Source: Dictyostelium discoideum
Lineage: Eukaryota
Assembly: GCA_000004695.1 (NCBI GenBank)
Contig: CM000154.2
Coordinates: 320,001 to 384,000 of the forward strand
Direction: 5' to 3'
Length of the DNA stretch: 64,000 bases
A model generated the notes under the pieces. It made no database searches. It was not told where the DNA came from and was given only the letters and a program-made list of their open reading frames with translations. Positions 41,279 to 47,499 of this stretch are shown here, piece after piece. Position numbers and translations under genes: made by a program. The first letter of the stretch is position 1, and each line of letters opens with the position of its first letter.

Positions 41279-41988
41279 ATGTCAAATTTAGGAAAATGTA
41301 CTAGATGTCAAAAAACTGTTTACTCTCAAGAAGGTTTTATTGCAGTAAAAGTTCCATTCCACCGTTCTTGTTTTAAGTAAGTTATAAAATTAAGAAATCA
41401 ATTTATAGTATAAATATTTATATTTACGTATTAACATAATTTTTTTATTTTTTTTTTATTTTTTTTTTTTTTTTTTTTTTTTTCACCAGATGCGAAGTTT
41501 GTAATTGGCAATTAGTTTTAACAAATTATAAATCAATTAATGGTAAAGTTTATTGTGCAAATCATTATCCAGTTGGTGGTTTATCAGTTACACCAGAAAA
41601 AACACATACAACATCAGATGACCTTGTAATGAAGAATGCTTTGAATGCACCTCGTGTTGAGACAGTAAATGAACAATTAAGAGGTGGAAATGAAAAGCCA
41701 CAAACCAGTACTGATGATTTAGTTACAAAGAATGCTTTAAATGCACCAAAGAGTAATTTAGTAAATAATCAAGTTAGAGGTACATCAGATTCTGCACCAC
41801 TCACAAGTGCTGATGATTTAGTTACCAGAAATGCATTAAAAGCACCCAAGAGTGATTTAGTAAATAATCAAGTTAGAGGTACATCAGAAATGGGCCCTCA
41901 AGCTGGTATCGACATAGTTACAGCTAATGCGCTCAAAGCACCAAAATTAGAGACAATGTCAGGTTATCAAAAAAGTGTACAAAATTAG
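41279..41988 (+). CDS. LIM-domain protein (LimE/CRP-like), 2 exons: join(41279..41376, 41490..41988); about 198 aa with four NALNAPK-type repeats
   Basis: Exon 1 MSNLGKCTRCQKTVYSQEGFIAVKVPFHRSCF ends at a GTAAGT donor at 41377. A 112-nt intron ends CACCAG (41488-41489). Exon 2 KCEVCNWQLVLTNYKSINGKVYCANHYPVGG completes a single CX2CX17HX2CX2CX2CX17CX2H-type LIM zinc finger. Four repeats follow, DDLV[MT][KR]NALNAPK...N.QVRG (VMKNALNAPRVETVNEQLRGG / VTKNALNAPKSNLVNNQVRG / VTRNALKAPKSDLVNNQVRG / VTANALKAPKLETMSG), as in Dictyostelium LimE. Confidence 0.75.
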
Positions 41989-43766: not shown

Positions 43767-44711
43767 CCTTAATTTTAAAAATAAAAAAGTAAAAAAAAAT
43801 AATAAAAATAATTATTATTATTATCAGAATAAAATTTATAATATTATAAAAATTCTGTTTTTATTTAATAGAGTGAACACACAACTTACTTTTTTTTTTA
43901 AAAATTTATTTTTTATTGAAATGTACAAGTGGGTGTGTATTTGTGTTTATTTGTGTGTATCTTTTAATTTTTTATTTATTTTTTTATTTATTTATTTAAT
44001 TTTTTTTTTTTTTTTTTTTTTATTTGTCAACTTCACAGTGAGTTAATTTTTTATATTTTTAATAATTATACAAACAATTTATTTTATTTTATTTTATTTA
44101 TTTATTTATTTTATCCTTTTAAAATAAAATGAAAATTATTTTTTTTTTATAAAAAAAAAAAAAAACATTCAATCAATTTATACTTTACAATAAAGAATGG
44201 AGTTATGGTTTGAAAATATTAAAATTTATATTACAATAATTTTTTTATTTTTTTATTTTTTTTTTTTAAATTTTTTTTTTTTAATTTAATTTTTAAAATC
44301 TTTTTTTAGGAATTCTGATGGTTTTTCGTATGATTTTATTATCGCAAATTTTAATATTAATCAATTATTTTAGAATCATTGTACTCCTAATTCGGAGCTA
44401 TTTTATGCAACCATATAAAAAAAAAACTGTCATATTTTTTAATTTAGTAATAATCTATAGATTGCCAGATGTCTTTAGAATATAAAAATAAAAAAAAAAA
44501 TAAAAAAAAATAAAAAAATAAAAAAAAATAAAAAAAAAAAAAAATAAAAAAAAAATAAAAAAATAAAAAAAAGTGAAAAAAAGAAATTAATTTTTTGGAA
44601 TGAGTTCTGGTATCATTCTGATGTTATACCAGAATTGTACCAATTTTTTTATTTTTATTTTTATTTTTTTTTTCTAATCACTATTTTTTTTTTTTTTTAT
44701 TTTTTTTTTTT

Positions 44712-44941
44712 TCAAGAATTTATTAAACTTTCTTGATCTTGTTTTGGTTTTGGAATTGGTTTCATTAAAATTGAAAGATGACCACGTTTATGAGCAAAGA
44801 AAATTGTTGGTAAAGTTACAGTTGGGACAAGGTATAATAATGCAGGTTGACCAGACTCTGTAATTAAAACAGCGAATAATGAAATTACCAAACCAGAAAT
44901 ATAACCAATCACAGAGATTTTAAAGTATCCAACAAAATTAC

Positions 44942-45019
<78 letters not shown>

Positions 45020-45028
45020 TGTTACCAC

Positions 45029-45059
<31 letters not shown>

Positions 45060-45244
45060 TTTCTCACCAAATTTATAATATTTATCCAAGAAATATAATT
45101 GACACATATAAATACCTGGTAATACAATATCACCATTACCTAATGATGAAAAACCACCACCAAAAAATTTTGGAACAGAAATTAACATTGGTAAATAAAA
45201 TTTATCTAAAACCTTAACTGCTACTTTTTCCCTGTTTTTTTTAT

Positions 45245-45300
<56 letters not shown>

Positions 45301-45734
45301 TAAATTCCATAAATAAAATTAAAAAATCCAATCAGATAATAATAATAATAAAAAAAAAAAAAAAAACTTACATTACACTCTCACCAAAAAAGAAACTACT
45401 ATAAAATACCCAAAAAACATCATAAATTAAAAATGTCCATAAAAGTAAAGTTAATCCTCTTAAATTATTTAATCTCATGAATGAAAATGCTGTTATACAT
45501 GAGCATATCGATAAAACTAATATATTGATTTGAAAAATAAAAAGTGTTAGCGAGGTTTTTTTTTTTATTTTTTTTTTTTATTTATTTATTTTTACCTACA
45601 ATTAACAAATAAAAAATGATTTGAGTAATACCAAAATAAAGTTAATATTACACCACAAACAAATGCAATTACAGATGATAACGTTATTGTAACTTCATCA
45701 TCTAACATTTTTAATCTATAAAATTTTTAATATT

Positions 45735-45814
<80 letters not shown>

Positions 45815-46226
45815 CAGTGGTGTTATTGATTAAACTATATTTTAATCTTAATGATTTAAGTGTATTATAATTGTGATATATAGGTATATACTTTTTAGAA
45901 GAATCATGAATTGAAAACTTTGGTAATAAATATTGAAAAAATGGATATGTAACATAAGATATGGCTAATAGTGATGTTATAACTATAACACAAATTAATA
46001 TATTATACATTGCATCCATATAATAAAAAAAGGTGAGGAGTGATAATGAACCAATACAAGGTAGTATTAATAACCATTTGTTTGGCATATCATTGTTATC
46101 GATTATTAAAAGTTGATTCTCCATATTAAATTTATATGATCTAAAACTACCATACCATATGGCAAATAATGGTATCCCTATTATCAAAAATGATGCTGGA
46201 TCAATTAACATTAACCATTTACCCAT
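44712..46226 (-). CDS. Signal peptide peptidase (presenilin-type intramembrane aspartyl protease, A22B), 4 exons: join(complement 45892..46226, 45600..45715, 45372..45516, 44712..45231); about 371 aa
   Basis: Exon 1 MGKWLMLIDPASFLIIGIPLFAIWYGSFRS...LLAISYVTYPFFQYLLPKFSIHDSSK (compare human HM13 LGILALSHTISPFMNKFFP) ends at a GTATAT donor. Exon 2 KLKMLDDEVTITLSSVIAFVCGVILTLFWYYSNHFLFVN (compare DTKDLVCLGLSSIVGVWYLLRKHWIANN) ends at a GTAGGT donor. Exon 3 FLSICSCITAFSFMRLNNLRGLTLLLWTFLIYDVFWVFYSSFFFGESV carries the catalytic YD motif. Exon 4 MEKVAVKVLDKFYLPMLISVPKFFGGGFSSLGNGDIVLPGIY...QPALLYLVPTVTLPTIFFAHKRGHLSI carries the GxGD and PAL motifs. Only the chosen donor/acceptor phases give an open reading frame, and the product length matches human SPP (377 aa). 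Under this model the ORF-track poly-N tail of 45711..46226 (...TLKSLRLKYSLINNTTDNNNN) is intron 1. The exon 2 donor is non-consensus. Confidence 0.75.
45735..45811. repeat. (ATT)n microsatellite inside intron 1 of the signal peptide peptidase gene
   Basis: attattatt... run directly 5' of the copied 49-nt coding fragment. It reads as poly-Asn on the minus strand, which is why the ORF track extends through it. Confidence 0.85.
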
Positions 46227-47499
46227 TATTAAATTTTTTTTTTATTTTTTTTAATATTTGTTTCTTTAATTTTTTTTAATTTTTTTTTTTTTTTTTTTTT
46301 ATATTATTGGTAACATATATTTATTTAATTAATTAAATGGTTTTTTAATTTTTTTTTTTTAATTTTTTAATTTTTTAATTTTTTTTTTTTTTGTCAGATT
46401 TAGAATATATTACACTGTGATGAATAAAAAATAATTAAAAAAAAATGAAAAATTTAAAATAAAAAAAATAACAAAAAAAAAATAAAAAAAAAATTTAAAA
46501 ATAATTTTTTTTTTTGTTGTTTTTTTTTTTGTCTTGTTTGCACACAATTTCGTTTAAAAACAATCACTTTTTTTTTTTTATTTATTAAATTATTTATAAT
46601 GGACTAATAGTTAAATTTATTGTTGAAGGACCTTTATTTATTATTTTTAATTCACCAGAAACTTGAAGATTTTTTTCAATATATTTAACACCTTTTCTTA
46701 ATGAAATAATTTCATCAGTTTTATCATTAATCTTAATTTCCACTTCTGAAATTTCATTCTCAGTTTTTGTTTCTATATGAATTAAAATAAATTGTTTTTC
46801 AATTACTACAGCTATTTATTTATTAAAATTTTTTAATTAGTATTATCATTTATTTTTTTTTTTTTTCAAAAATTAAAAAAAAAAAAAAAAAAAATTTACA
46901 ATGAATTGAATTAACTTCTAGTTCTATGCTTGACATTCTTTATTTCTTATTAATTTACTTATTAATTTTGAATAATAAAATAAAAATAATATAAAAATAA
47001 AAAAAAATAAAAAAAAATAAATAAAAAAAAATAAATAAAAAAAAAAAATAAAACGTGAAAAAAATAAATAAAAAAAATAAAAAAAAAGATGTATGTTCAA
47101 CTCAAAATAATTAATTTTTACAAAACACACCAAAAACCAAATTTAAGAATTGTTTACTTTTTTTTTTTTTTTGTTTATTTTTTATTTTTTATTTTTTATT
47201 ATTTTCATTTGGGTGTATACAGAAATTAAAAAAAAAATAAAAAAAAAAAAATAAAAAAAAAAAATGGGTATGTTGGACAATTCCAAATGGGAAATTTTTT
47301 TTTTTTCTTTTTTTTTTGGCCGAGAAATGAATCATTTAAAATAATGATCATTTTTTATTGGGTTTAGAAAGATTTAAATTTTTATTCTTTTTTTTTTTTT
47401 CTATTTTTTTTTTTTAAATTTATTTTTTTTTATTGTTTTTTTTTTTTCCTCTTCATTTTTTTTTCTTTTTTTTTCTTTTTTTTTCTCAATTAAGGGTTT

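Follow-up and report, generated by a model that had tools for sequence, protein, structure and literature searches.

The window examined here, a 64,000-nucleotide stretch of Dictyostelium discoideum DNA with a G+C content of 23.7%, carries on its minus strand a gene of the signal peptide peptidase family, built of four exons, and, 30 kb away on the same chromosome, a single-exon gene encoding a protein of 374 residues. The first intron of the peptidase gene contains an exact copy of a short piece of the coding sequence of the second gene, placed beside a long trinucleotide microsatellite. The positions of the two genes, of the shared segment and of its junctions are given in Table 1 together with the orthologous introns used for comparison.

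Table 1. Features of the donor and recipient loci (positions are those of the window) and the first intron of the peptidase gene in five other genomes.
Feature	Position	Strand	Length or product	Remarks
Peptidase gene, signal peptide peptidase family (Peptidase_A22B, SPPL3-like)	44712..46226	-	371 aa	
Peptidase exons	46226-45892, 45715-45600, 45516-45372, 45231-44712	-	371-aa product	
Peptidase intron 1	45716..45891	-	176 nt	GT at 45891/45890, AG at 45717/45716; relatives 67-93 nt
Donor gene, single-exon ORF with Treslin/Sld3 STD-domain-like relatives	14918..16042	-	374 aa	encodes ...IIQVKSLRLKYSLINNTTDNNNNNNNENNN...
Donor stretch in coding sequence of the 374-aa gene	15704..15771	+		unique core 15726-15768, then (TAA)7 in gene sense
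Recipient copy	45792..45859	+		exactly identical to 15704-15771; inside peptidase intron 1
Net inserted unique core	45814..45856	+	43 nt	TCAGTGG...AATGATT on the plus strand; AATCATT...CACTGA in gene sense
Microsatellite of intron 1, pure (ATT)n / (TAA)25	45737..45813	+		homology-bearing side
Microhomology at the return junction	45857..45859	+	3 nt	TAA on the plus strand; TTA in gene sense
Intron 1, D. discoideum ACTFIR (L003)			93 nt	core absent
Intron 1, D. cf. discoideum (L002)			81 nt	core absent
Intron 1, D. discoideum ACTFIW (L004)			67 nt	core absent
Intron 1, D. firmibasis (L009)			70 nt	core absent
Intron 1, D. citrinum (L008)			about 69 nt	core absent

The peptidase gene

The four-exon model has introns of 176, 83 and 140 nt, all bounded by GT and AG, and its product matches the Pfam family Peptidase_A22B (PF04258) with an E-value of 5e-54 and a score of 184 bits against a cut-off of 23.3. 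The YD (LIYDVFW), GxGD (LGNGD) and PAL (QPALLYLVP) motifs are all present in the model and invariant in the alignment. With poly-asparagine length set aside, the protein shares 99% identity with those annotated in other D. discoideum strains, and the junction of exons 1 and 2, at which SSKK is followed by LKMLDDE, is common to all aligned Dictyostelium orthologues. An earlier note on this DNA had proposed the same structure, had described the product as collinear with human signal peptide peptidase and had placed the copied segment in the first intron. The length of 371 residues is borne out, and the intronic position is supported by the family match, the 99% identity and the shared exon junction. 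The family assignment also stands, but a homologue search gives SPPL3, not SPP/HM13, as the best animal matches. Neither this search nor the one made for the donor gene returned proteins of the reference strain, and looking up the window proteins by exact sequence in a clustered protein collection gave no match.

The exons are 99.1-99.2% identical to those of two D. discoideum strains and 98.8% identical to those of D. cf. discoideum; among further relatives the values are 95.8% for D. citrinum and 93.1% for D. firmibasis. These identities place the window lineage in D. discoideum. The peptidase of the window differs from the SPPL3 subgroup of A22B in having a long poly-asparagine loop between the GxGD and PAL motifs. 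In the window this Asn-rich loop, encoded in exon 4 (44931-45059, minus strand), is 14-23 residues longer than in three D. discoideum or D. cf. discoideum strains, and in D. citrinum, D. dimigraforme and D. firmibasis it amounts to only a handful of residues. Taken together, the longer loop and the (TAA)25 of intron 1 indicate that both AAT tracts of the peptidase gene have expanded in the window lineage.

The donor gene

Read on the minus strand, the copied segment encodes KSLRLKYSLINNTTD and then poly-asparagine, in agreement with the earlier placing of the peptide inside the 374-residue ORF. KSLRLKYSLINNTTD is kept as coding sequence in the D. discoideum, D. cf. discoideum and D. citrinum orthologues, some of which have one substitution in it, and its SLRLKY part is kept in D. 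purpureum. The 374-residue protein itself has no Pfam match. Three of the six members of the donor family match Pfam Treslin_STD, and one of them (P0126) does so above the curated cut-off, with 35.4 against 24.2 bits over residues 31-162. Treslin_STD is the Cdc45-binding domain of Sld3/Treslin. To judge from these relatives the donor is probably an Sld3/Treslin-type protein, with the copied piece lying inside that domain. It seems that the domain is interrupted by the poly-asparagine immediately following KSLRLKYSLINNTTD, which would push the window protein below detection.

A partial copy of the donor gene is found in D. discoideum ACTFIR, on the 57-kb contig JBTAPF010000050.1 (L007, 1432-2342), between unrelated flanks. 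The homology is limited to window positions 16106-15084, the copy is annotated as a protein of 284 residues and it has neither the (TAA)n tract nor the Asn-rich stretch that follows. It could represent a dispersed duplicate or a rearranged locus of the donor gene.

Extent of the shared segment

When up to three mismatches are allowed, the 49-mer in which the copy was originally noticed has exactly two matches in the 64-kb window, at 15723-15771 and 45811-45859, both on the plus strand; the chance expectation, from 100 dinucleotide-preserving shuffles, is zero. The intron position had been reported correctly in the earlier note, but the donor position, reported as 15727-15775, was 4 nt too high. 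The common orientation of the two copies and the (ATT)n run beside each, which had also been pointed out, are as described. An exact-repeat scan extends the maximal identity to 68 nt, rather than 49, because the match runs into the shared (ATT)n. On one side the identity ends abruptly, with the donor continuing from ...GATTTAA to cttgaata and the intron from ...GATTTAA to gtgtatta.

A generic listing of repeats across the whole window was dominated by low-complexity families and was replaced by the custom exact-repeat scan and a masked self-BLAST. The latter, which extends to the whole window the BLAST comparison suggested for defining the extent of identity, returned only the donor/intron pair and one tandem repeat of 99 nt (41698-41888). 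Complex exact repeats of at least 20 nt are otherwise limited, across all 64 kb, to a local 34-mer at 41756/41855. The region 41698-41888 (plus strand) consists of two tandem 92-nt units, 99 nt apart and 88% identical, which include the exact 34-mer and fall in an ORF of 119 residues (41629-41988); it looks like an internal coding repeat.

Direction and age of the copy

Comparison with orthologous loci, put forward in the earlier note as a means of polarising the event, gives a uniform answer: intron 1 is without the 43-nt core in all five of the other genomes fetched, and the insert is derived. In ACTFIR and D. cf. discoideum the intron reads GTATAT...ATAATACACTTA/TAATAATAA...TACTAATATTAAAAATTTTATAG, with an empty-site junction of ...ACACTTA/TAATAATAA..., and the window intron reads ...ACACTTA(AATCATTAAGATTAAAATATAGTTTAATCAATAACACCACTGA)TAATAATAA.... 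The empty and filled sites, set side by side, indicate that the insert entered precisely where the unique flank meets the microsatellite and that zero recipient bases were lost.

Both the donor and the intron copy in the window read AACACCACTG (the ACC allele). The two other sequences of the donor gene that were examined, from D. cf. discoideum (L006) and from the partial copy in ACTFIR, read AACACTACTG (ACT). The copy thus carries the window lineage's own allele and matches it at 68 of 68 positions, so that it was made within the lineage and has not diverged since. The empty introns, the conserved donor coding sequence and the lineage allele together set the direction as gene to intron and the event as recent. 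As judged by sequence comparison this is a recent, lineage-specific copy from gene to intron, and the proposal that such a copy was seeded at (ATT)n gains support from the five empty introns, the conserved donor peptide and the lineage's own donor allele. Alignment of the window with four related loci, over 4-8 kb, gave no other window-specific complex insertion with a donor in the window; large apparent insertions near 47480 merely reflect the point at which the aligned region was cut.

An identical insert and the same (TAA)25 occur in a second assembly, GCA_054883475.1. Over 6.5 kb at the peptidase locus and 4.1 kb at the donor locus this assembly shows 0 mismatches to the window at aligned bases and differs only in the lengths of homopolymers (A-runs). 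Across the 6.5 kb the differences amount to 12 nt in the poly-A of intron 3 (45251-45295) and 3 nt past the peptidase stop (44690-44701), and they are compatible with the use of different sequencing technologies or with homopolymers that are unstable between sub-lines. By the record coordinates, the distance from one copy to the other is about 100 nt less than in the window. The A-run and spacing differences indicate that GCA_054883475.1 and the window are distinct assemblies of one lineage.

Junctions and a possible mechanism

What type of event would add such a segment? The homology available at the two junctions is unequal, with about 22 nt or more of (TAA)n on one side and a 3-nt TTA on the other, the latter common to the donor flank and the ancestral intron (ACACTTA/TAATAA). 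The net gain is 43 nt with respect to the ancestral intron and no recipient sequence has been replaced. Neither terminal inverted repeats nor a target-site duplication are evident at the insert when the sequence is read. The (TAA)n tract of intron 1 has 25 units in the window as opposed to 10 in ACTFIR, 6 in D. cf. discoideum and a shorter run in ACTFIW. The anatomy of the junctions speaks against transposition and excludes classical gene conversion, the second of which had been offered as a reading in the earlier note; homology confined to one side, 3 nt on the other and a net addition of 43 nt fit a templated insertion instead. This is a well-known class of mutation, and we assign the event to it with a probability of about 0.8.

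The sequences themselves establish the identity, its direction and recent date, the form of the junctions and the occurrence in two assemblies; the initiating break or stall, the order of the steps and the enzymes are inferred. Most likely the (TAA)n of intron 1 broke, or a fork stalled within it or at its edge, which would have left a 3' end of (ATT)n on the plus strand. Such an end could pair with the (ATT)7 of the 374-residue gene, a coding tract that has the same orientation and lies 30 kb off on the same chromosome, be extended for 46 nt into unique donor sequence and then leave the template. The freed end would rejoin the intron through the 3-nt TAA/TTA microhomology, exactly where unique sequence had previously given way to the repeat. 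The growth of the repeat to 25 units may also be due to pairing out of register or to repeated slippage. The single product fits synthesis-dependent strand annealing (SDSA) or theta-mediated end joining and replicative template switching alike. The D. discoideum genome has genes for DNA polymerase theta and ligase III (PMC8529158). An unseen paralogue of the donor gene elsewhere in the genome could be the true template, given the partial duplicate in ACTFIR.

Templated insertions at repaired breaks, attributed to theta-mediated end joining or SDSA, have been described in flies, worms, plants, mammals and yeast. The Dictyostelium insert resembles these in comprising tens of nucleotides from the same genome, with microhomology at a junction, intact flanks and no transposon hallmarks. 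It differs in the priming homology, about 22 nt of trinucleotide repeat as opposed to 1-6 nt, and in the position of the template, 30 kb off rather than within a few hundred bases. There is also a likeness to MMBIR/FoSTeS, in which use of an ectopic template and return by way of microhomology lead to a templated insertion, but no rearrangement or change in copy number accompanies the Dictyostelium insert. The MMB-TIs detected by a published search tool are inverted copies with templates within 100 bp of the insertion (PMC8421209), in contrast to the direct copy and template 30 kb away seen here. With ectopic gene conversion the event shares the short, non-reciprocal transfer of a patch between two loci on one chromosome, but the homology is one-sided and sequence has been added instead of replaced.

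Alternative explanations

Might the template have been RNA? A fragment of mRNA from the 374-residue gene, or a cDNA, captured at a break in the intronic microsatellite would be consistent with an insert that is wholly transcribed coding sequence in the sense orientation relative to both genes and, the donor being intronless in this region, DNA and RNA templates give the same product. However, the insert displays nothing specific to RNA, neither a poly(A) remnant nor an exon-exon junction, and the (TAA)n homology combined with a donor 30 kb away on the same chromosome and in the same orientation is accounted for more simply by a DNA template. We consider the RNA route improbable. A little less credence is due to the idea that the two copies are members of a dispersed repeat or multi-copy gene family and not donor and recipient. 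The partial duplicate of the donor gene on another ACTFIR contig could be taken as a sign of this, but there are just two copies in 64 kb and, donor orthologues excepted, related loci totalling about 25 kb do not contain the core. A search with a 42-nt core of a metagenome contig collection, in which dictyostelid DNA is probably rare, gave no match, and this also counts, weakly, against a repeat. Furthermore, the segment is conserved as an in-frame part of a coding region, five relatives have an empty recipient site and the structural marks of a mobile element considered above are missing.

Long pure trinucleotide runs are classic sites of mis-assembly, and the perfect identity of the two copies is as expected if a chimeric read or a mis-join at (ATT)n had produced the insert. 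Unlike a chimeric join, however, the patch returns to the right locus after 43 nt and does so through a clean microhomology junction. The presence of the insert, identical and next to the same (TAA)25, in an assembly that differs in homopolymers and spacing also argues against an artefact, although we caution that the two assemblies may share a DNA source or reads; we judge an artefact very improbable. Least probable of all is classical ectopic gene conversion, or an ancestral insert that was lost in the other lineages. An (ATT)n tract is indeed common to one side, and intron 1 is polymorphic in length among strains (67-93 nt), but conversion is at odds with a second-side homology of only 3 nt and with the fact that nothing was replaced. 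Ancestral presence would need at least three precise, independent deletions (in the discoideum strains, D. citrinum and D. firmibasis) and leaves the 68/68 identity to the lineage's own allele unexplained.

Significance

The preferred reading, a templated insertion, makes this a cleanly polarised natural example: the donor is identified, relatives show the ancestral site empty, and the two junctions are resolved along with a marker allele specific to the lineage. A full-text literature search found no paper describing templated insertions in Dictyostelium. The event also hints at a capacity of (AAT)n tracts to seed ectopic copying. Such tracts are extremely abundant in Dictyostelium, in introns and, as poly-asparagine, in coding sequence. 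It is a tentative and rather doubtful extension that they act as general ectopic priming sites, from which a broken or stalled end copies pieces of adjacent coding sequence into another gene. If true, this would imply microsatellite-seeded movement of gene fragments, possibly exon or domain shuffling by poly-asparagine tracts, and bursts of repeat expansion; were such events common, the microsatellite load of Dictyostelium would be linked to gene-fragment movement. Of more immediate use, an intron of 176 nt as opposed to 67-93 nt offers a PCR-sized marker for the strain lineage.

Consequences for splicing and annotation

The insert is placed mid-intron and affects neither splice site; the sites (GTATAT...TTTTATAG) are the same in other D. 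discoideum and D. cf. discoideum strains. In all likelihood the insert is neutral and removed by splicing, and it probably has no function. Its removal is supported by the collinearity of the orthologue proteins and by the TAA at 45713-45711, at which read-through would meet an in-frame stop. The 176 nt of intron 1 are not a multiple of three, and read-through arrives at this stop before the conserved frame of exon 2. The predicted join of exons 1 and 2 runs from ...TCTTCTAAAAA to ATTAAAAATGTTAGAT.

Several other roles for the insert were considered and set aside. As a coding exon it would have its frame closed at the TAA just mentioned, and all orthologue proteins join SSKK to LKMLDDE. The reading frame shared by the donor and the read-through ORF is a one-in-three coincidence, and the frame stops before exon 2. 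Antisense or regulatory pairing of the two transcripts was dismissed because both copies are in the sense orientation.

In practice the insert matters for annotation. In the ancestral frame there is an in-frame stop (...CAC TTA TAA). The insert, with an upstream 5-nt indel, puts (TAA)n in the AAT (Asn) frame, and by this shift exon 1 seems to continue as an ORF of 171 residues (45711..46226), which runs through the insert in the same frame as the donor peptide and has a tail of real coding sequence and poly-asparagine. That ORF finders would be misled in this way had been anticipated, and the annotation of GCA_054883475.1 is a case in point: the 171-residue read-through ORF and a separate gene of 208 residues (L001, 3001-3516 and 3749-4503; CM142511.1) stand as two spurious genes in place of the peptidase, a conserved intramembrane protease, and the 208-residue product begins at an internal Met in peptidase exon 3. 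Other strains are annotated with an intact peptidase of 348-357 residues. For gene models in this lineage the four-exon, 371-residue structure is preferable, and an insert that mimics an exon by combining real coding sequence with a poly-asparagine repeat serves as a warning for annotation.

The insert also adds AAAATATAG at 45843-45835 (minus strand), 57 nt past the donor site of intron 1, as a candidate cryptic acceptor; its AG lies at 45836/45835, is followed by TTTAATC and would define an intron of 57 nt. Use of AAAATATAG could give an in-frame Asn-rich extension as far as the TAA at 45713-45711, and hence a truncated peptidase.
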